DNA from: an uncultured Ignavibacteria bacterium
GTDB lineage: Bacteria; Zixibacteria; MSB-5A5; CAIYYT01
DNA: 64,000 nucleotides
Reading direction: 5' to 3'
Assembly (NCBI GenBank): GCA_964537215.1
Contig: CAZIBI010000011.1
Location: 4,517-68,516 of the forward strand
The notes beneath the pieces were generated by a model. That model worked only from the letters and a program-made list of their open reading frames with translations, searched no databases and was not told where the DNA came from. Shown here piece after piece: positions 4,201 to 62,981 of this stretch. Numbering within the stretch: the stretch's first letter is position 1; each line of letters starts with the position of its first letter. The position numbers and the translations under genes were made by a program.

Positions 4201-4870
4201 TGGAGGCACCCTCGGCAAGATCCATCAGCGCGATGACAACAACCTTGGCATCTCCCCTTTGATTCGCCCGCCACTCTTGGGCGATTTGGGCATCGATGCG
4301 CCAGTTATCTTTGAAACGAAGTAGTCTGACATAGACTCCAACCAACTCGTGCAGATAGGTGAGGCGATTGACCAAAGATGCGTCTACTGAAGTGTCTGAT
4401 AGCGCAAGATTCTCCAGAGAGTCTGCACGCCGTTCGTCGCCTTGCTCCTCTGCCATAATCATCTGGCGCCAGGCGATTGCACGACGAAGCGCAACATTCG
4501 TTGGATGAATTTTCGCCGCGAATGCGGCTGCTGCCGACCAAGACGAGTCGGCTTGGGCGACGGAACTGTCCCGCATGTGATAATCGCCGAGACAGATGAG
4601 TATTGCGGCTCGCGCGCTATCAGCATCCGGCGCTTTCGGATTGACCAATGCATAGGCTTCCCACGCCAGTTGCTTAGCAGAATCGCTCGGCCATATTGCT
4701 CGCTGGCGGGCAAAGGAAATGTCGCACGACAAGCGCTCCGCCAGCGCGAGGCGCGACACCCAATCATTTTGCTCTGCGAGCGAAATAGCTGTAGATAGCA
4801 GAACCGTGATTAGTATGGCCAGACTGCGGGCCAAAACTCCTCCCAGTTTTATTGGTCGGTCAAAGATCAC
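1268..4870 (-). CDS. Secreted or exported TPR-repeat protein with C-terminal CHAT (caspase-like, clan CD) protease domain
   Basis: The N-terminus looks like a signal peptide or anchor (RSLAILITVLLSTAISLA). A long TPR-like helical repeat region follows. The C-terminus has CHAT hallmarks (HLATHAYF..., ...VVLSACESG...). The gene converges on the anti-sigma factor gene. Confidence 0.65.
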   Translation of the reverse strand: MIFDRPIKLGGVLARSLAILITVLLSTAISLAEQNDWVSRLALAERLSCDISFARQRAIWPSDSAKQLAWEAYALVNPKAPDADSARAAILICLGDYHMRDSSVAQADSSWSAAAAFAAKIHPTNVALRRAIAWRQMIMAEEQGDERRADSLENLALSDTSVDASLVNRLTYLHELVGVYVRLLRFKDNWRIDAQIAQEWRANQRGDAKVVVIALMDLAEGASKFLLTNVQSRFAEQDSAIKLGEEALQIARTRLGTADASVGYVLNRLGDYYVRRGDRARAIQYWNEAYKINLAALPLEHIECQGSIDRLGGVAASEGEYSRAIELITLGIKLRKQTQGEGHQEVASLTSNLAGLYRQMGQFARAESLYNVALEIRRKALPPDHPDIASSFNSLGKVCFDQGRTAEAETYWRRALGIRETVLGANDAATVSILQNLAVLYDEWGRSDDAEEMLDRVLRVKRKFLGADHPEVAFGYLDLAKLHIKQRKLPLAHVEANKALAILGARGDSLDSDALMTIAEIDKTEGQLDKADSLVRLVIDIVNRRDGESNFRLIRPLVEHAEYLRDRGDLVQSDTVYQRAIAIAESVEITKSTRMSELLSSYGELQLRSNRVKEAQRSFARAYQIALAGFQDAVQVLPELKAARFAGEINKLRDKFISSLFADDDQRRQPERSGIDLKSVAVDEFAAVILSGRAIVSESVLEHRAHLMNSNNKRVSPLLDSLRDVSLQLARAQIENDADSSFAKFDRRLKRLAARKLFLEESLVHLGYEIGDDPGTLILSEDKTINLLRENSPLIEFVKYYSATRRVSQYAAFIANRGSLRAINLGAAEPIEDAIGRVGLQMSAMSETGGDADSNSLLVYLAVGQKIAASVWQPLSKFMPDSGQVFVIPDGALNSLSFGSLPTSTNSFLIEQYQFSYLNSIRDLNRDVAPANRQSGLLALGDPNFTADLSKRFASTNPEIASYAPGSNKNSVARGILANCRIPRESLTPLVASRSEVKSAARIWRAAHSQPVYILVGDAASEENFKRLASGNEIIHLATHAYFLSHDCFPKALEEVTTANPLLLSGLLLAGAAVLAPADSALVGEDGVLSGEEIAAMDLHGTKCVVLSACESGLGTVNDGEGVYGLRRAFQLAGVETIVSTLWNVPDQSTARLMQRLYTNLQEGFASAVRKAQLATLRELREANMPPHPYSWGAFIVVGR

Positions 4871-46872: not shown

Positions 46873-48516
46873 TTAGATTAGAGTGATGCCGGCAGGCTGC
46901 TTTCGGATCTTTCTCTTCGCCGTCGGCTGCGTTGCCACATCCACGGGCACCGTTGGTTCTGTCCTCACCTTTGCCTGAGACACATGTCCGACTCGCTCCA
47001 GGTATCTCAAGAACCACTGAACACCCCGCTCGGTGATCCAAGCTGCCGAGAGCTGGTCGTCGTGATCACAGGCCGTCGGATCGTGAAGCTCTTCGATCAG
47101 ATTGTCAGTGATTTCCTTATCTTCGGGAGTCTTGTACGGGAAATGGATTTGGCGGTTCTCACAGAGCACCGAGAGCGATGGATAGCCTGCGAATGGATCG
47201 TACTTATTGCCGCCGGTGTAGTGCTTTTTGATCGGGACGCCGGTCTCTTCTCTGATATGCCAGCTGTAGATTTCACCGAAGGCATTTTCTTCGAAGAACA
47301 TCCGGTTCGGGCGATGAAGTCGGCACTGGTTGACGATCGTGCTCTTGACTGTCTTCGGCGACATTCCGCGATCGCGGAAGAGATCCAGCAGATACCGATG
47401 TTCGTTTTCCGCGATGCCCCAGGTCATATTGACAAAGAAATCGGTGTCGTTTTTCTCGGCCCGCTTCTTGTCAGTAACTAAGGCCGGGTCGCACCCGGAA
47501 ATGATGCCAAGGAATTTCTTCCGGTCGTACTCGCGGTAGCTAATTGTATCATCGCAGCACGCCTTGAGGTCGTCTCGCGAGATAAGTGCGCTAACATCGT
47601 CGCTCGCCTCCTGCTGATATTTCAGGTTGAAAGCGACAGTGCCAATTTCGCGGCGCAGAGCGAGCAGTCGTTTGACCGGATATCGCTCTTCGGTGAGTGC
47701 CTTGCCCGGAAACTTTAGGTCAATTTCGACGCGCCACTTACTGCGGTCGCCGAATTCATTGACCTCATGCCGCGGCAGCTCGACGATGCGGTAATGCTCT
47801 GGCCCCGGATCCTCGACCAGCGCCTTGCTGATAATCATGTGGTAGTCGGCAAGGCCCGCAAGGTACGCGTAGATGTCCTTGGGGTGCTGCTTATTGGCGA
47901 GCACCAACAAACGGCCGCCCGGTACCAAACGCGTACGAATCGCGTTCTGGAACATGTGGACGTGGAACTTCCGCGTCTTCTCGCTTCTGACGTTGAGATC
48001 GTTCTGGATGTCATCCAGAAGGATCAAGTCATAGTGCTTCCCGTAGAAGCGCTTCGAGTCCATGCCGTAGGCCTCGAAGGTGCGCTCTTTCGCATTGAGG
48101 TCGCGGCGAACTTGGAAGCGACGATCCGACCAATACTTCGCAGTCCTAAACGGTCCGAAGTCCTCGATGATTCTATCGTTCTCGAGGTCTTGGCGGAGCA
48201 CCGAGCCGGAGGCCTCCGAAAGGTCGCCGGTCGATGAAATATAGCAAATGCGGATGTTGCGATTGAATGTTATCGACCGCAGCGGAACAAGCCGCGCGAT
48301 AACTTCGGTCTTGCCGGAATCCGGCGGGCCGACGATGCCACCCTTGGTGATCTCGCGCAGTTCTTCGAACCACGCCTTTTGACACGCCCAGAGATTTAAG
48401 TCAAGATAGTACGCCGCATAGAATTTGATCGACTTCGCGGCAAGCTTGCGCCTCGCTGTCGGGGTGCTTGCACCCAAATCTCTAAGTGCGGCATTGATCT
48501 CACTTGGGCTTATCAC
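46873..48516 (-). CDS. Terminase large subunit (547 aa)
   Basis: An N-terminal P-loop (GIVGPPDSGKTEV) and a C-terminal nuclease-like region (DTDFFVNMTWGIAE) are present. The gene lies between the TerS-like and portal genes. Confidence 0.75.
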   Translation of the reverse strand: MISPSEINAALRDLGASTPTARRKLAAKSIKFYAAYYLDLNLWACQKAWFEELREITKGGIVGPPDSGKTEVIARLVPLRSITFNRNIRICYISSTGDLSEASGSVLRQDLENDRIIEDFGPFRTAKYWSDRRFQVRRDLNAKERTFEAYGMDSKRFYGKHYDLILLDDIQNDLNVRSEKTRKFHVHMFQNAIRTRLVPGGRLLVLANKQHPKDIYAYLAGLADYHMIISKALVEDPGPEHYRIVELPRHEVNEFGDRSKWRVEIDLKFPGKALTEERYPVKRLLALRREIGTVAFNLKYQQEASDDVSALISRDDLKACCDDTISYREYDRKKFLGIISGCDPALVTDKKRAEKNDTDFFVNMTWGIAENEHRYLLDLFRDRGMSPKTVKSTIVNQCRLHRPNRMFFEENAFGEIYSWHIREETGVPIKKHYTGGNKYDPFAGYPSLSVLCENRQIHFPYKTPEDKEITDNLIEELHDPTACDHDDQLSAAWITERGVQWFLRYLERVGHVSQAKVRTEPTVPVDVATQPTAKRKIRKQPAGITLI

Positions 48517-50416: not shown

Positions 50417-52258
50417 CTAACTTAACTGATCCGCTATCAGCTGCGATAGCCTTATTTCGGACGATCCTTCTATCAGGCCGAGCGAGCGCATGCGCGAAAG
50501 ATACTCGCCGAAAGTCCCACCGCTCGCTACCACACCCACCAAATCGGCAAGCTCTGCCCTGCTGATTCCTTTGGGGTGGTCCAGGATAATATCGAGCATC
50601 TCAGCTTGCCGCGCGTTCAAATGGTTGGCCTTATACCAGTCGATCAACTCCCTTCCGATCGGCAGCGGCTCGACATCGCGGACGGTGGCCTCGCCTGTGG
50701 CGGTTATTCGGATGCTATCCCGTTGCCCCTCAATCAGTCTGGCTACTCGTAGGCGCGAGAGATACTCCCCAAACGTACCGCCGGTACTCTTGAGCCCGAC
50801 CAGCGTCCCGATTATCCGAGCACTGGTCGACTCAAAACCCATCTGTTGACGCTGCGAGAGAGCTACCAGAATGCGCTTCTGGGAAGCGTTGATTTTGAAG
50901 TCGCCGTCAACTTGTTCAGCTTTCTTTACATCTTTCGGAACATGTAAAGTTTCGGGGCGATTTCTGAACGAGTTTGGCTGTTCCTTGGCGACTTTTACAG
51001 ATTCCGTTATTGTGTTATCTTCCTCACGGACTGTAAGGTGCCGGGTGCCTGGTGTGAAGGTTCGGTGAACTCGCATTTCCGTTGAATGACCTTTCGGGTC
51101 GACCTCTTCAACTCTCTTTTTGTTCTCGATTATAACTCCGGCCATCGCGTGGACGTCCTCAATGAAGCTTTCGGCGGGAGAGAGGCGTTTAACCAACCTT
51201 CCGACAAGCCTTTCCGCGTCAATTAGGCTCTTGCGAAGACCCATGATTTCGGTTCCATGATCGCACGGCTTCACCTGGCTCTTTTCCGCCAGCGTCAACT
51301 TGCGCTTAAGGTCGGTTATCTCCCTGCGGAGATCCTCCGTCGTGCGCGCCTGCTCTTCGGCTTCCTGCGGGAGATCTGCGAGTTTAGCGAGGATGTCCTT
51401 AACCTTTGCGTTCGGCGCCGGCGGCGTCTCGAGGAAACGAGCCCCGACCTTGGGGTGGTGCGTCTCAACCGGACCGACCTTGAGCAATAGGACACCGGGG
51501 GCTTCCTGTTTGTCGGTTCGCCAAGCCGGACCGTAAGCGTAGAAGTCCCCGGGTCGGAGGATTCGCAAGGCTGTTCTGTCGGCCTTGCCGATGAGTCCAA
51601 GTTCGTCGGCGGCTCTTGCCTGGTCGATGTCGAGAGACGTTCGGCCAATAAGCTTGTTACCCAGTTCCGCACAGACGTCCTTGTGGAACTTCGATAGTCT
51701 TTGTGTGGCTGCTACGAGACAAAATCCACGTTTCCTTCCCCTCGTGGCCAGATCAATTACGGATGGTGCGGATTCAGCTTGGCCTTTTTCCGGACAGAAG
51801 TGATGAGCTTCGTCGATCACTACAAGTATCGGACGCCACAAATCTTTCTTGACCATCATGAGAGACTCGAGGAAAAGCCGCACAAATCGGATTCTGTCAT
51901 GGGCTTTCAGCTCGTAGAGATCGCAGATCGCGGAGACCTGCAGCTCCATCAGCTTTTGCGCGAGTAGCCCGGCCGTCTTGGGCGAAGCCTGCACGTCGCC
52001 GTTCTTGCTGGCGATGATGTAATCAAATTTAGAGCGGAGCGTCGAGAACTCGCCTTCGAGGTCGATGACAATCTGCTGCACCTGTCCGTGCGATTGTTCG
52101 AGCAGCCGGCGAATCGCCCAAGACTTTCCGGCGCCGGATTGCGCCTGAATCAACGCCCGTGATTCGATCAAAGTCGGAAGGTCGAGATCGAGATCGCGGC
52201 CTTCGTTGGTCTTGCCGATGTTAAGTTTCATCGCCGGTTCCTCCGAAAGAACTTCCAA
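50417..52258 (-). CDS. HerA/FtsK-superfamily P-loop ATPase (DUF87-like) with two C-terminal winged-helix repeats (613 aa)
   Basis: Walker A (AQSGAGKSWAIRRLLEQ) and Walker B (PILVVIDEAHHFCPEKG) are present, as is ATRGRKRGFCLVAATQRL. The C-terminus carries a tandem ...GGTFGEYLSR(L/M)R...LIEG... duplication. Confidence 0.55.
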   Translation of the reverse strand: MEVLSEEPAMKLNIGKTNEGRDLDLDLPTLIESRALIQAQSGAGKSWAIRRLLEQSHGQVQQIVIDLEGEFSTLRSKFDYIIASKNGDVQASPKTAGLLAQKLMELQVSAICDLYELKAHDRIRFVRLFLESLMMVKKDLWRPILVVIDEAHHFCPEKGQAESAPSVIDLATRGRKRGFCLVAATQRLSKFHKDVCAELGNKLIGRTSLDIDQARAADELGLIGKADRTALRILRPGDFYAYGPAWRTDKQEAPGVLLLKVGPVETHHPKVGARFLETPPAPNAKVKDILAKLADLPQEAEEQARTTEDLRREITDLKRKLTLAEKSQVKPCDHGTEIMGLRKSLIDAERLVGRLVKRLSPAESFIEDVHAMAGVIIENKKRVEEVDPKGHSTEMRVHRTFTPGTRHLTVREEDNTITESVKVAKEQPNSFRNRPETLHVPKDVKKAEQVDGDFKINASQKRILVALSQRQQMGFESTSARIIGTLVGLKSTGGTFGEYLSRLRVARLIEGQRDSIRITATGEATVRDVEPLPIGRELIDWYKANHLNARQAEMLDIILDHPKGISRAELADLVGVVASGGTFGEYLSRMRSLGLIEGSSEIRLSQLIADQLS

Positions 52259-52729: not shown

Positions 52730-53215
52730 TCATCCCTTCCCCTTTCCCACGCAGGCGGAGCAAAGATCGGGTTCGACCCAGTGGCAGAAGCCTTCATCCG
52801 TAGAGCATGCGGAAAATTCTGTGCATGCACAAACGCGGCACTTCTTATTGGCATCAGTCTGTGCAGCCTTCCGTTCCCGCGTCATGTTGAAAAAGTCCCG
52901 CGCGGCAAAGACGCGTCCGATGCCCATGATCTCACGCGCCCTGTTGGCTTCTGCCACGGTCCAGCGCTGTCGCGGCTTCCGCTGAATCTTGTTCATCTCG
53001 AAGATGTCGCAGATTGTCAGCTCCAACTCTTCAACCCGCTTGTTCATGGCAACAATTTCGTCGAGTTCATTTACTGCCGCGAGCAATCCCTGATAAGCAA
53101 GCCTCGTATGCTCGACCTGCTCTTTACTGTCTAATGAGAGGTCCTCGAATTGCGTCCGGCATCCCTTCGCCGCCTCCTCGATGCGGCGAATAATGTCGAT
53201 CTTCGCTCGGTTCAC
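52730..53215 (-). CDS. Hypothetical protein with a C-terminal Cys cluster (161 aa)
   Basis: The C-terminus reads CRVCACTEFSACSTDEGFCHWVEPDLCSAC. The gene overlaps the ParB-like gene by 4 nt. Confidence 0.4.
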   Translation of the reverse strand: MNRAKIDIIRRIEEAAKGCRTQFEDLSLDSKEQVEHTRLAYQGLLAAVNELDEIVAMNKRVEELELTICDIFEMNKIQRKPRQRWTVAEANRAREIMGIGRVFAARDFFNMTRERKAAQTDANKKCRVCACTEFSACSTDEGFCHWVEPDLCSACVGKGKG

Positions 53216-54831
53216 TTCTTCCCTGCCTTCTTCTCCGGTGCGGCGCCGACCTTCGGCTTCGCGTCGGGGATCGCTTTCACCGCGTCCGCTTCGAGGTCGG
53301 ACCAGTTGAGGCCGAGCAGGTGAATTGCAATCTGTTGCGTTGCCTGCCAGTCATCAACGTAGATGCTCTCCGATACGACTCTCCAGATTTCCTTAAGCGC
53401 CGCACCTTCGCTCATATTCTTCCACTTCGCGAGTCCGTCAAATTTACCGTGATCGTTGCAGATAAGCGCGGATGCAAAGAGCCTCATGACGTCCATCGGG
53501 GTGAGCAAAACAAGATGCGCCGGTGGGTTAGAGCGCGAATCGAAGGAATTCATTATCTTCTCGCGAATCCACTGCTCGCGCCGTGCCGCAATTTCTTCGG
53601 CTTTCTGTTTCTCAACTTGTTCCGGCGTCATCTTCTTGACATCAGCCTTGGTCGGTTTCTTCGGCTCATCCGCCTTCTTGATCTTGATGTAGCTGATCGA
53701 TCCAAGCCCTCTCTCGTTGATCGTCATGGCGGGGACTGCGCCCTTGTCACTCTTCCTGACGACCTCGTAACCTAAGTCACTACTCCACGGTTTGGGCTTA
53801 ATGAGGGTGTTGCCGCGCGACAAACCTCCGACGATCCGATTATCGCCCCTGCCCCAGCCGGAGTTCTTATCCAAAAGCACAAGGTTCGGATGTTTGGCTT
53901 GCGCCTCTGCAAGCTTCTGCTTGCCGAATTTTTCCAGCTTCTTGTTCCAGCAGGCGATGTCCAAACACTTGTCCTCCGGCGATGCTTTCTTGCCATCGAC
54001 TTCGCCGTCGAAAAGCAGCGACTGGCAGGACGACCGTTTCGGGCAGGCGCTACAAGCACCGGCAGCCGGGAACAAAATCGCGTCATCGAGCTTCCACGGC
54101 GCGGACTTGAGCGTTCGATCGAACGCCGATAGCTCGCGCTTAACATCGTTGACGGTCGGGACGTTGCTGCTCTTCAAGTAAGATTGCAGTAGCTTGCCCT
54201 GTACGCTCGGCTCATAACTGGCGATCATTTCGAACGCGGCCACTGATAGAGCTTTGCCTTCTCGCAAGTTGGCGATGTACTTCATCCATTCCGGCGTGAG
54301 CTTATTGAGCTGCTCGCGCCGCGCTACCGCCTGCGGTGTCATCCCCAGATCGGCGGCAATATCTTTCGTCTCGCGGCCGTCGTCGCGCAGATTCTTGATC
54401 GCGGCCGCTTCTTCGAATGCGGTGAGCTGCAAGCGGTGAAGATTGGCAGTGAGCTGGATCGTCTGCATTTTGTCACCAGGCATGTCTTCGGCGATCTCTA
54501 TCACGCGCGCGGTCTTGGTTTTGTTCTTCTGCAGAGCGGCGAACCTCCGATGGCCGTCAACCAGCAAATACTTCTCGTTGCCTTTGATGTCGCCGCCGTC
54601 CGGAATGTGCTGCACGATTAACGGAATTTGCAGTCCGATTGCGGCGATGGATTTCGCCAACGTGTCGATATCACGCAGGCGGTCGTTCCCTTGACTCGCC
54701 CGAATGTGACTCAATTCAATTTCTTTTACTTCTTCTCTTGCGGTGGTCATTACTTCCTCACTTGGTTCGTTGAAAACTCTCCGGCTCCCAGAAGACCAGC
54801 CAGCGGTCGACTGTCGCAGTCGGTTCCTCAA
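53212..54831 (-). CDS. ParB-like nuclease / partition-family protein (539 aa)
   Basis: An N-terminal ParB domain (...YLLVDGHRRFAALQ...) and a central HTH-like region are present, followed by a Lys-rich C-terminus. Confidence 0.6.
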   Translation of the reverse strand: MRNRLRQSTAGWSSGSRRVFNEPSEEVMTTAREEVKEIELSHIRASQGNDRLRDIDTLAKSIAAIGLQIPLIVQHIPDGGDIKGNEKYLLVDGHRRFAALQKNKTKTARVIEIAEDMPGDKMQTIQLTANLHRLQLTAFEEAAAIKNLRDDGRETKDIAADLGMTPQAVARREQLNKLTPEWMKYIANLREGKALSVAAFEMIASYEPSVQGKLLQSYLKSSNVPTVNDVKRELSAFDRTLKSAPWKLDDAILFPAAGACSACPKRSSCQSLLFDGEVDGKKASPEDKCLDIACWNKKLEKFGKQKLAEAQAKHPNLVLLDKNSGWGRGDNRIVGGLSRGNTLIKPKPWSSDLGYEVVRKSDKGAVPAMTINERGLGSISYIKIKKADEPKKPTKADVKKMTPEQVEKQKAEEIAARREQWIREKIMNSFDSRSNPPAHLVLLTPMDVMRLFASALICNDHGKFDGLAKWKNMSEGAALKEIWRVVSESIYVDDWQATQQIAIHLLGLNWSDLEADAVKAIPDAKPKVGAAPEKKAGKK

Positions 54832-59996: not shown

Positions 59997-60599
59997 TTAG
60001 AATTCTTCCTCGACGAAATTCCCCGGCCTGGGGCGTCTTGTCGTTTTTGTATCCCCGAAATTCAATTTGCTTTGTTCGACGTGCGGCTGGAATTCGCCCA
60101 CGACCTCGAGCGCGACAACGATCCATTCATCGAAGCCCGGCTCGGTCACAAACCATTCCTTGCCCGGAAATGGATAGGCGTTGACGACGTTGTCGTTGAT
60201 GTAGAGGAATCGAGTGTCGACAAACGGATTCTTCTTTGTCTTTCGATCGCGCTGCAGCGAATCCTTGACGCCCTTCTTGAGATTGTCTTCATCGAGCAGC
60301 GCCCGCGTTCTCGTCTGTGACTTGAGCGGACGGCCGTTCTTGTCTGCGAATTTCTTCCGCATCGTCTTTTGGTGGCTGGCGACGTGGTACTCGAGGTACA
60401 TCACGATCGGAGTCTTGACATCCGGAACGATCCATCCGGATTTCTTCTTGGCCCTTTCCAGCTCGCGCCGCGCCCGCTCCCGGAATGCTTTGTAATCGCC
60501 CTCCAGGAAGACCATCTTCCTGCCGTTCTTCCACGCCTCGATACGGCGATGGTCGAATCCGAGCGGACCGGGAATGATGAATTCGATGCGCTGGCTCAT
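59997..60599 (-). CDS. RusA-like Holliday junction resolvase (200 aa)
   Basis: The motif ...LLDEDNLKKGVKDSL... matches the RusA D-x-DN-x-x-K-x-x-x-D signature. The gene overlaps dnaB by 4 nt. Confidence 0.5.
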   Translation of the reverse strand: MSQRIEFIIPGPLGFDHRRIEAWKNGRKMVFLEGDYKAFRERARRELERAKKKSGWIVPDVKTPIVMYLEYHVASHQKTMRKKFADKNGRPLKSQTRTRALLDEDNLKKGVKDSLQRDRKTKKNPFVDTRFLYINDNVVNAYPFPGKEWFVTEPGFDEWIVVALEVVGEFQPHVEQSKLNFGDTKTTRRPRPGNFVEEEF

Positions 60600-61993
60600 A
60601 GCGGCAGTCCCTGCTGGCTACCGGCCAGCGATTCAAACGAGACCAAATCGCCGCACCAGAAGAGCGAGGCCTTCCCAAGTGGATTTTGTCTCGACTTCTT
60701 CAGGAGAATTCGCGCGTGATTCTTGGGGAACTCATTCAGGCGATCGGGATAATCCATATAGGGATGCCAGACGAAGAGCACGTTGTCGGCGTCCTGTTCG
60801 ATCGATCCAGATTCTCTCAAGTCCGTAAGCTGCGGCTCTTTGTTCTGACGCTGCTCGACCAAGCGATTCATCTGGCAGAGGCCGATAACCGCGACCGATA
60901 ATTCCCGAGCCATGCGCTTCAGAAAGCGCGTGATGAAGCTGACTTCGGCGACGCGCTCATTGGCCTTGAATCCGCCGACTTCGATGAGCTGGACGTAATC
61001 TATGATGATCACCTTCGAGTTGCGCTCGCGGATGGAGCGCCGCGCGAGCCGCCGCAATGTGTATGGGCCGGGATCGTCAATGAGGTAGTGGTATTTGACG
61101 AGCGATTCCTGCCCGACAGCGCGCTGAATCGCCGCATACTCTTCCGCGGAGAGCCCGCGGCCGTTCTTGATCTTGGCATGAGGAATCCGGGTCCGCCAGG
61201 AAACCCGGCGCGACTCGATTTGGACCTCGTCCATTTCGTACGAAAAGAAATCAGATGCGATCCCGATGTCGCTCAAGTGCTCGGCCATTTGCTGCGCCAG
61301 CGCCGACTTCCCTTGCCCCGGCCTGCCGGCCAAAACTGTGAATGTACCGTCGTCGAACTCATCGAAGAGATCGTCGACTTCAGGAAACCCAGTCCGCACC
61401 AGCGACCGCACTTCTTCCGGATGCTCGTTTGCGTAGATTCGTGCGTCGAGCTTCTTGAGAAACGCAAGTCCGGAATCCACCGGCGATATTTCTTTGTCGA
61501 CCTTGGCTTCAACCGCCAGCTTGAACAGCTTGTGGTCAGCGAACTCGAGTACATCTGATGGACTCTCGTGTTCATTTGCCCGCTTGAATACTTCAGCGGA
61601 GAAGTGCATCAGCTTGCGGAGGATCGCTTTCTCCTTGACGATCTGCGCATAGCGCTCGCAGTTGGCGGCAGAGTAAACATCTTCCTGCAATTCCACCAGA
61701 TAGGCGCGGCCGCCGATCGCTTCAAGTTGCCCCGCGCTCACCAGCTGATCAGTCACCGTCACAATGTCCGCCGGCTGCGCCTTGTCGTTGATCTCCAGGA
61801 TCGCCTTAAATATCTCGATGTGGCGCCGCTCGTAGAAATCATCCGGAGCGACTATCGAGCGAGCAGCGTCGATGTAAATGTTGTCGATCATCAGTGCGCC
61901 GAGCAGCGACATCTCCGCCTGCCGGTCCTGTGGTGGAATCTTGTCTAAGGTCGCTTGGTCGATTTCACCAGCCGGCGCGTTTGTATGACTCAC
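60596..61993 (-). CDS. dnaB: Replicative DNA helicase, DnaB family (465 aa)
   Basis: The N-terminal DnaB domain reads SLLGALMIDNIYIDAARSIVAPDDFYERRHIEIFKAIL. Walker A is LAGRPGQGKSALAQQMAEH. RecA-like C-terminal motifs follow. Confidence 0.85.
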   Translation of the reverse strand: MSHTNAPAGEIDQATLDKIPPQDRQAEMSLLGALMIDNIYIDAARSIVAPDDFYERRHIEIFKAILEINDKAQPADIVTVTDQLVSAGQLEAIGGRAYLVELQEDVYSAANCERYAQIVKEKAILRKLMHFSAEVFKRANEHESPSDVLEFADHKLFKLAVEAKVDKEISPVDSGLAFLKKLDARIYANEHPEEVRSLVRTGFPEVDDLFDEFDDGTFTVLAGRPGQGKSALAQQMAEHLSDIGIASDFFSYEMDEVQIESRRVSWRTRIPHAKIKNGRGLSAEEYAAIQRAVGQESLVKYHYLIDDPGPYTLRRLARRSIRERNSKVIIIDYVQLIEVGGFKANERVAEVSFITRFLKRMARELSVAVIGLCQMNRLVEQRQNKEPQLTDLRESGSIEQDADNVLFVWHPYMDYPDRLNEFPKNHARILLKKSRQNPLGKASLFWCGDLVSFESLAGSQQGLPL

Positions 61994-62981
61994 TTGCGTA
62001 CTCCATTACTTTTGCCGGGTCCTTGAGTTGAGTTTTGAAATAGGCGATCACGGAGCCAAGCGTTTTCGGCCTTCCGTTCGTCGACGAAACGTGTTCATCC
62101 AGGACTTGCTTTAGAAATGCGATTAGAGCTTCCGGTGGCGGCCAGGTATCAACGCGATTGATGTCCTTGAAGTAGACCTCAACGATCAGTCCATTGGCGA
62201 TGTTACCGGCAATGCCGCCGATGTGCTTCATGTCCGCGCACGGCAGCAACTCTCCGAAGTATTCCTTGACCGCCGCGACATAATCACCGCGAGTTAATTT
62301 TTCAGCTTGAGATTCAATAGGCGCCGTAGGCGCACTTGGTTGTGGCTCCGGATATGGTTCCGGTTCTGGATCAGGTTCTGGTTCTGGTATTGCCGAACCG
62401 TTTGCCGAACCCTCCGGGAACGGTATGGGTAACGGTATGGCAGACAGTTCGGCGAACCGTTTCTGTAACCGTTCGTGTAACGGTTTGCCTAACCGTTCGG
62501 AGATGGTTTCGGAAGTCGCCTTGAGAAACGGGCAAAGCGAGTCATAGAAGTCTTTGAAGATTGGAGTCGCCGGTAGATCAAGAGCTCGCTTAAGCATGCC
62601 GATTGCGACGTTGACATTGTCCGGAGCGTCGTACTCGTGCCACTTGGTGCAAAAGACGATCTTCTTTTCGAAGTCGTACTTGATCCAACCCTCATCAGCG
62701 AGCGCGATTAATTCGGCCCTGACGGCCTCTATGGCCGCCTTGAAGGCGATTGGATCGGTCTGCTCGATATCTATGCCGTCAACCTCATCAACAATCGTTA
62801 GAATCGGCAGACGGTAGAGTCCGGGGTTGCCGGTGGCGTGCTCGTTAGACCATAGATATGCGAGCAAACACTTTGTATCACGAGGCTTGACCTTGAACCT
62901 TTTCGAGTTCCAAGTCTTCCGTACGATCTTGCCGTATGGAGTGCGGCCACCTTTGCTTAGTTCACTCATCAAGAGTCCCAC
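61965..62981 (-). CDS. Replication initiator / replisome organiser protein with an internal Pro-Glu linker (338 aa)
   Basis: It lies immediately upstream of dnaB. It contains an internal linker EPEPDPEPEPYPEPQP. An iteron-like repeat array lies inside the gene, as in lambda O-type initiators. Confidence 0.5.
   Translation of the reverse strand: MGLLMSELSKGGRTPYGKIVRKTWNSKRFKVKPRDTKCLLAYLWSNEHATGNPGLYRLPILTIVDEVDGIDIEQTDPIAFKAAIEAVRAELIALADEGWIKYDFEKKIVFCTKWHEYDAPDNVNVAIGMLKRALDLPATPIFKDFYDSLCPFLKATSETISERLGKPLHERLQKRFAELSAIPLPIPFPEGSANGSAIPEPEPDPEPEPYPEPQPSAPTAPIESQAEKLTRGDYVAAVKEYFGELLPCADMKHIGGIAGNIANGLIVEVYFKDINRVDTWPPPEALIAFLKQVLDEHVSSTNGRPKTLGSVIAYFKTQLKDPAKVMEYASESYKRAGW
62411..62520. 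repeat. Iteron-like array: six copies of AACGGTT / AACCGTT (direct and inverted) at ~12-bp spacing inside the initiator gene; candidate origin of replication
   Basis: The copies lie at about 62419, 62431, 62454, 62467, 62479 and 62491. The array is preceded by GGTTC(T/C)GG tandem repeats at 62336-62400. Confidence 0.5.

Follow-up and report, generated by a model that had tools for sequence, protein, structure and literature searches.

A probable replication origin, built of phased AACSGTT cores and easily melted DNA, inside the initiator gene of a myovirus-like phage

The DNA analysed here is a 64-kb stretch (64,000 nucleotides, positions 4,517 to 68,516 of contig CAZIBI010000011.1, from an uncultured Ignavibacteria bacterium), which we call the window throughout, and the element under study is an array of short phased repeats within its replication initiator gene. 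Since the window also encodes terminase, portal, sheath and tape-measure proteins, it can be regarded as a myovirus-like phage or prophage, referred to below as the window phage. The genes around the array are all located on the minus strand (Table 1), and on the 3' side of dnaB they continue with a RusA-like resolvase gene and then an antiterminator-like gene. The initiator protein, which is identical to database protein P0001, has two domains joined by a linker that is encoded by repeats, and these repeats lie within the initiator open reading frame (ORF) between the N-terminal domain (N-domain, aa 1-150) and the C-terminal domain (C-domain, aa 215-334). A preliminary description of this DNA had placed the array in the gene directly upstream of dnaB, which agrees with our finding that the ORF at 61965-62981 on the minus strand overlaps the dnaB start.

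Table 1. Features of the initiator-dnaB locus, in window coordinates.
Feature	Position	Strand	Remarks
Replication initiator gene	61965..62969	minus	334 aa; ATG at 62969 is the probable start; ORF reaches GTG at 62981
N-terminal winged-helix domain coding region, presumed origin-recognition domain	62520..62969	minus	aa 1-150
Iteron array	62396..62509	unassigned	ten 12-bp units with 7-bp core AACSGTT, five exact and five degenerate
Hexamer simple repeat encoding the Pro/Glu linker	62337..62388	unassigned	(GGTTCY)n on the plus strand, (RGAACC)n on the gene strand; belongs to the candidate DNA unwinding element
GC palindrome GCGCCGTAGGCGC	62321..62333	unassigned	flanked by the hexamer repeat on one side and the AT-richer patch on the other
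Least stable duplex of the gene, ATAATCACCGCGAGTTAATTTTTCAGCTTGAGATTCAATAG	62280..62321	unassigned	candidate unwinding-element core; from nearest-neighbour stability
C-terminal domain coding region, presumed recruiter of phage DnaB	61965..62327	minus	aa 215-334
DnaB-type replicative helicase gene, phage-encoded	60596..61993	minus	Pfam DnaB 2.3e-30, DnaB_C 7.4e-62; phrog_19

The units of the array are arranged head-to-tail, and their cores read on the plus strand, in order, AACCGTT (62396), AACCCTC (62408, an 11-bp unit), AACGGTA (62419 and 62431), GACAGTT (62443), AACCGTT (62455 and 62467), AACGGTT (62479), AACCGTT (62491) and a degenerate ATGGTTT (62503). This amounts to five exact AACSGTT cores, two AACGGTA and three weaker units, so the six exact AACGGTT/AACCGTT cores counted in the preliminary description have to be corrected to five; its spacing of about 12 bp is borne out by the ten units and by Tandem Repeats Finder, which detected a 12-bp period at 62455-62497 in addition to a 6-bp period at 62337-62388. 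The array holds five of the 11 exact AACSGTT words of the window, where about 0.01 per 100 bp would be expected from shuffled sequences, and phased cores of the more general form AASSSTT (see below) occur in the 64-kb window only at 62396-62509. The AACSGTT units encode aa 157-192, SERLGKPLHERLQKRFAELSAIPLPIPFPEGSANGS, a segment that precedes the Pro/Glu linker, and thus the previously noted coincidence of the repeats with this linker holds for the GGTTCY hexamers and not for the cores. The core at 62396 is frame-shifted relative to the other cores (AAC GGT TCG, encoding N G S). At the centre of the core C and G alternate, with Pro or Arg encoded as a result, and such an exchange fits a DNA site that is readable on either strand rather than a protein requirement. 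As single-stranded DNA, the gene strand at 62277-62512 folds at -43 kcal/mol (z = -4.2 relative to shuffled controls), as is expected from palindromic phased cores.

Whether the encoded peptide is enough to explain the cores was addressed by recoding, in which aa 153-195 were synonymously randomised 200,000 times with the codon usage of 20 window genes. Five AACSGTT cores were obtained in none of the 200,000 recodings, the maximum being four, and 78% of the recodings had none at all. The real sequence attains its five cores through rare TTA and ATA codons: TTA represents 3.3% of Leu codons and four of the six TTA codons of the initiator gene fall inside the array, and ATA represents 9.4% of Ile codons and three of the five in the gene are found in the array or at its edge. 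Codon repetition of the linker, which the preliminary description had considered as a possible source of the repeats, therefore does not account for them, given the outcome of the recodings and the presence of cores in other frames.

We searched for the same arrangement in other genomes with a hidden Markov model (HMM) of the first 150 residues of the window protein, from which the array is excluded, and with scans of the DNA alone. When IMG/VR was scanned, from DNA alone, for three AACSGTT at a spacing of 12 bp, 119 contigs were returned, 57 of which have an N-domain homologue by the HMM in the same ORF as the array, and in nearly all of these 57 the array starts 4-160 bp past the N-domain end; in some of the 119 contigs the hits are ordinary tandem repeats, located in genes of giant viruses and in other genes. 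For the sister core AACCCTT, 53 of 106 contigs had the N-domain, as compared to one of 29 for the control pattern ACASTGT, which is palindromic and matched in composition. The association was also seen from the side of the protein. When loci were fetched with the N-domain peptide only (four Ignavibacteria metagenome-assembled genome (MAG) contigs, five metagenome contigs, nine viral contigs and, by tblastn, two cultured phages), a phased array directly after the N-domain was present in almost all of them, being less clear in L128 and in Citrobacter phage Chris1 than in the others. Cores are of the type AACSGTT or TACCGTT in L123-L127, L129 and L142, AAGGGTT/AACCCTT in L130 and L134-L141, and GAAGSSCT (GAAGGGCT/GAAGCCCT) in L131. 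Together, AACSGTT and the AAGGGTT/AACCCTT variants give AASSSTT as the general core. Exhaustive phmmer searching returned 230 representative relatives, nearly all aligned to the N-terminal half, and a word-indexed protein search returned only P0001 itself and one C-domain relative. No related locus was found in viral contigs with a 10-sequence alignment as query, nor with one single-protein query.

All three frames are in use among the cores of 45 non-redundant relatives, with 63, 80 and 60 exact cores in codon phases 0, 1 and 2, respectively, and 11 loci mix codon phases within one array. The corresponding peptides are NGS/NGL/NRS in phase 0, ERL/QPL/EPF in phase 1 and ETV/QTV in phase 2. Neighbouring cores are 12 bp apart in 127 of 159 pairs and 11 bp apart in eight, and conservation is restricted to the 7-bp core, since each position of the 5-bp spacers carries less than 0.35 bit. 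Homologues of about 25% identity thus retain the DNA word while the peptide varies, which indicates selection at the DNA level. As judged from these sequence comparisons, the cores are under DNA-level selection and are not a by-product of the peptide.

Further arrays were noted in several relatives. A second phased array of two to four cores (AASSSTT, with the third unit often AACTGTT) is present in about 29 of 48 non-redundant relatives, approximately 165-210 bp ahead of where the N-domain coding region ends (e.g. L020, L090, L051 and L123). It lies inside the winged-helix coding sequence, with phases 1, 2 and 0 in 48, 19 and 10 cases, and the window initiator gene has no such second array in its N-domain coding region. 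In L086, an additional three-core array occurs about 40-70 bp upstream of the putative initiator start, besides the array after the N-domain (L086 2000-2030 and about 2548, respectively), and this upstream array could be an autoregulatory operator. Non-coding arrays were seen as well: nine AACSGTT cores at exact 12-bp spacing occupy a non-coding gap at 7709-7860 of L010 (IMGVR_UViG_3300020428_000119) and are followed by a TATATATA-rich stretch, which by its sequence looks like a free-standing origin, and no N-domain homologue was found in the 13.8 kb of L010 sequence covered. L046 likewise has an array in non-coding DNA, flanked by a TATA-rich stretch, and similar arrays adjoin TATA-rich stretches in L004, L017 and L064.

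The DNA that follows the array is unusually easy to melt. In the direction of the gene, the array is succeeded by the hexamer repeat (62388-62337), the GC palindrome (62333-62321), the least stable 30-40 bp (62321-62280) and the C-domain. The hexamers encode PEPEPDPEPEPYPEPQP, and Tandem Repeats Finder described them by the unit TGGTTC with period 6 and 8.7 copies, in keeping with the GGTTCYGG-type tandem repeats that had previously been noticed beside the cores. By nearest-neighbour stability, the 30-mer at 62291 belongs to the least stable 0.31% of the window and the 40-mer at 62280 to the least stable 0.64%, so that the search for an unwinding element near the array, as advised in the preliminary description, led to a candidate at 62280-62321; the GC content at 62260-62319 is 41.7%. 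The stability of the linker DNA was more than 5 standard deviations below that of its synonymous recodings, with 0 of 20,000 recodings as unstable, and the segment of palindrome and AT-richer patch (aa 213-232) was less stable than 99.9% of recodings, whereas two control segments of the initiator gene had ordinary stability relative to their recodings. The low stability of the linker DNA is brought about by CCA, a codon that represents 11.5% of Pro codons and here encodes six of the nine prolines. The same trend was observed in the 48 non-redundant relatives, where stability within the locus is lowest, on average, 10-40 bp past the last core (z of +1.4 to +1.5). In most relatives this post-array DNA consists of a simple repeat, with units of 5 or 6 bp, that is poor in T on the gene strand (A 45%, C 25%, G 24%, T 6%), and one and the same repeat unit is read in different frames in different relatives, with AACAGG encoding QEQE or GTGT and AGGATC encoding QDQD or GSGS.

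In L134-L141, whose N-domains share 79-96% identity with the query, the copy number of a (CAGGAA) repeat about 60-110 bp past the N-domain end varies, and the repeat that serves as linker and presumed unwinding element thus behaves as a length-variable microsatellite; slippage may be the source of the variation in hexamer length. A recurrent GC palindrome, GCGCCnnnGGCGC, often made of two GGCGCC hexamers, closely follows the simple repeat in L001-L003 and L124-L127 and in L023, L029 and L102 is found 60-110 bp past the array (positions: L001, 10523; L124 and L127, 3526; L125, 2349; L126, 2679; L023, 8480; L029, 11947; L102, 10126). It is present even in L001, where the N-domain is unrelated. 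The palindrome encodes AP-x-AP, and its conservation is compatible with a role of either the DNA or the peptide; on the plus strand of the window it has a weak terminator-like hairpin score.

The two domains of the initiator appear in different combinations. An alignment-based structure model confidently predicted the N-domain as a winged helix, one such fold being modelled, and a single-sequence AlphaFold model of the initiator was unusable (predicted local distance difference test (pLDDT) score of 45). Searching solved structures by sequence with a profile yielded low-complexity noise only, and no Pfam model matched the domain in the window protein or in 39 relatives. HMM comparison of the N-terminal 130-150 residues of the window protein with the PHROG families phrog_1701 and phrog_25711 gave E-values of 6e-6 and 2e-5, and of 40 aligned members 39 and 35 matched these families, the best E-values being 1e-27 and 1.5e-31. 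Relatives are assigned to phrog_25711, to phrog_1701 ("DnaD-like helicase loader") and to several "replication initiation protein" families. Only one close relative was found for the C-domain, P0002, with 74% identity in this domain and, after it, a DnaB gene whose product is 71% identical. By its N-domain P0002 falls into another initiator PHROG family, and in its linker AACSGTT is absent, a 21-bp palindrome and (CCAAA)7 being present instead. Weaker C-domain homologues in L123, L125 and L127 are likewise succeeded directly by DnaB. On this evidence the N-domain and its sites form one module and the C-domain and helicase another, which is the lambdoid pattern. At 10439-10513 of L001, an initiator with a different N-domain and the same C-domain, the linker contains a near-perfect 21-bp palindrome, GGCAATGCGTCACGCAATGCC, and related CTATGCGTG half-sites; the (CCAAA)7 that comes after this palindrome has a 5-bp period and cannot be a codon repeat.

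We consider it likely, with good confidence, that the array and the unwinding element make up the window phage's replication origin, embedded in a lambda-like manner in the gene of its own initiator. The preliminary description had suggested a probable origin at this site, and that proposal is supported, at the level of sequence, by the recoding test and DNA-level core selection, the tight association of the cores with the winged-helix N-domain across phages, the low stability of the neighbouring DNA, the predicted winged helix, and the modularity of C-domain and DnaB. An easily melted element directly downstream of the array is also what characterises a lambda-type architecture, and the relatives are alike in this.

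For the action of such an origin we infer binding, oligomerisation, melting and helicase recruitment. The N-terminal winged-helix domains would bind the AACSGTT cores as monomers or dimers. Because the cores recur every 12 bp and not every 10.5 bp, neighbouring proteins would be shifted by about 50 degrees, and approximately ten bound copies would trace a shallow spiral and distort the DNA. Strain from the filled array could then open the low-stability stretch at 62280-62390, with its T-poor hexamer repeat and AT-richer patch, upon which the C-domain may deliver the phage's own DnaB, encoded immediately downstream. Transcription of the initiator gene would run through the origin, as in lambda. 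Since the presumed origin DNA is at the same time the coding sequence of the flexible interdomain linker, the origin would dictate part of the protein sequence. Beyond the window phage, we lean slightly towards a single conserved origin design, with AASSSTT every 12 bp and then a T-poor 5-/6-bp microsatellite that acts as unwinding element and linker, shared by a large winged-helix family unclassified in Pfam in phages of unrelated hosts, with the cores superimposed on the initiator coding sequence in any frame and, in most relatives, also inside the DNA-binding domain.

Other explanations of the array were weighed against an origin in the initiator gene. That it has no function at the DNA level, and is just periodic DNA produced by a repetitive peptide or by recent slippage duplications in a tolerant linker, seems to us extremely improbable, even though the encoded peptide has a 4-residue periodicity and a Pro/Glu dipeptide repeat and the hexamer copy number differs between close relatives in the manner of a microsatellite. 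The R/P and G/P alternation at the core centre corresponds to C/G flips in the DNA and not to a protein constraint, the cores are retained between proteins of about 25% identity, and as the main explanation peptide repetition or neutral slippage is contradicted by the failure of all recodings to reproduce the cores, by their reading in three frames, and by the conservation of the 7-bp core alone among nearly random spacers.

A function in regulation is closer to what we observed, as the sites might bind the initiator for autorepression, titration or handcuffing/copy control with replication starting elsewhere. The operator-like position of the extra array upstream of the initiator gene in L086 and the second array inside the N-domain coding region of most relatives would suit such a role, and in iteron plasmids the iterons serve both replication and regulation. 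We nevertheless regard this as unlikely, because the 64-kb window has no other phased cluster, because the array is coupled to a conserved, strand-asymmetric stretch of low stability that would be superfluous for a pure operator, and because origins are classically located where the array is, between the two initiator domains (PMC7466680, PMC6316719). A cis site for another protein or process, be it a centromere for the ParB-like protein encoded at 53212-54831, a packaging site or a site for a host factor, would be very unlikely in our estimation. Although a ParB-like gene is present in the window and centromeres typically carry phased short repeats, the arrays accompany the winged-helix N-domain in more than 100 contigs, usually in the same ORF just after it, and a swap of the N-domain is accompanied by loss of the AACSGTT array; on the grounds of this linkage and the module swap we reject a ParB centromere or a host-factor site as the main explanation. 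A single host-factor site is also difficult to reconcile with relatives in both Ignavibacteria MAGs and enterobacterial phages.

The proposed origin can be compared with known systems, among which lambda is the closest in layout. The lambda ori lies in the middle of gene O, between the N-terminal origin-binding domain and the C-terminal helicase-recruiting domain, and as in the window an easily melted stretch lies beyond the iterons in the direction of transcription, both being inside the initiator gene and translated as linker (PMC7466680). The parallel to lambda ori drawn in the preliminary description is thus sound with respect to this order. In the lambda sequence, the A-rich run ACAAAAGAAAAAAGAAAAGA comes immediately after the four iterons and is translated within O, whereas the corresponding stretch in the window phage is a T-poor hexamer repeat (microsatellite). 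Moreover, lambda has four inverted-repeat iterons of 18-19 bp that are about 20-24 bp apart, as opposed to approximately ten 7-bp cores every 12 bp, and it recruits the host DnaB through P, whereas the window phage encodes its own DnaB. Homology between the N-domain profile and lambda O was not detectable (hhalign probability 0.35%), and Pfam Phage_rep_O had no match in the window protein or the 39 relatives. In P22, gene 18, an O-type initiator gene with the origin inside it, is followed by gene 12 for a phage helicase of the DnaB family. The succession of initiator gene and phage helicase gene in the window is P22-like.

The oriL of SPP1 lies in gene 38 and consists of direct repeats bound by the product of that gene with an adjoining AT-rich unwinding element, so that both phages combine iterons and easily melted DNA inside the initiator gene with a phage-encoded DnaB-family helicase (PMC6316719). 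SPP1 (gp38, gp39, gp40) differs from the window phage in that its loader is a separate protein, gp39, and that it possesses a second origin, oriR, and Pfam Phage_rep_org_N was not matched by the window protein or the 39 relatives. Plasmid iterons measure 17-22 bp and are located outside rep, and plasmid Rep proteins contain two winged-helix domains. In iteron plasmids, direct-repeat initiator sites adjoin the unwinding element and a winged helix recognises the repeats (PMC4980987). With one modelled winged helix and 7-bp cores at 12-bp spacing inside the gene, the window initiator falls outside the iteron-plasmid Rep class, and Pfam Rep-family domains had no match in it or in the 39 relatives. 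Among cultured phages, a homologous N-domain is found in QBQ71951 of Klebsiella phage ST13-OXA48phi12.4 (phrog_1701/phrog_25711 group), with the same layout as in the window, i.e. the cores AAGGGTT, AAGGGTT and AACCGTT at 12 bp and then (CAGGAW)n; its C-domain is different, and the next gene is DnaC-like instead of DnaB. QBQ71951 is annotated as a hypothetical protein, and its record has no origin feature in the stretch examined. When this Klebsiella homologue was compared with E. coli genomes by blastn, only the C-terminal part matched. We found no description of AACSGTT or AACCGTT iterons in the literature, the coverage of which was incomplete; where the motif co-occurred with "iteron" or "origin", it did so as a primer or as an entry in a list of terminators.

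Additional observations concern the wider locus. The last 29 nt of the initiator gene overlap the annotated dnaB start, at 61965-61993 in the window and at 10857-10885 in L001, which suggests translational coupling. ORFs matching terminase large-subunit PHROG families are located at 46873-48516 and 50417-52258, the second match being partial only, and the ParB-like protein at 53212-54831 (539 aa) is encoded between the replication and packaging genes. No match to 50,697 phage records was obtained with the initiator (tblastn) or with 24 kb of the window (megablast). GC skew was uninformative, and promoter and terminator scans performed no better than chance.

An origin within the initiator gene is a classical principle, and the novelty here resides in a core that is conserved, is read in three frames and extends over more than 100 uncultured phages. 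Both the initiator family and the iteron design differ from those described and appear to be undescribed. To our knowledge, the replication origin is not known for most uncultured phages. If the cores are indeed initiator sites, the origin could be located by a sequence rule (a winged-helix N-domain, succeeded by AASSSTT at 12-bp intervals and after these by a T-poor simple repeat) in the window phage and in at least 110 IMG/VR contigs, and if the design is truly conserved, the origins of many uncultured phages would be predictable from sequence alone. The arrangement would also be a case of overlapping codes in which the cis-acting DNA element is invariant and the encoded protein changes with the reading frame, and in which a microsatellite may double as protein linker and DNA unwinding element. 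Altogether, the picture that has been known since lambda would be widened by these phages, and not overturned.
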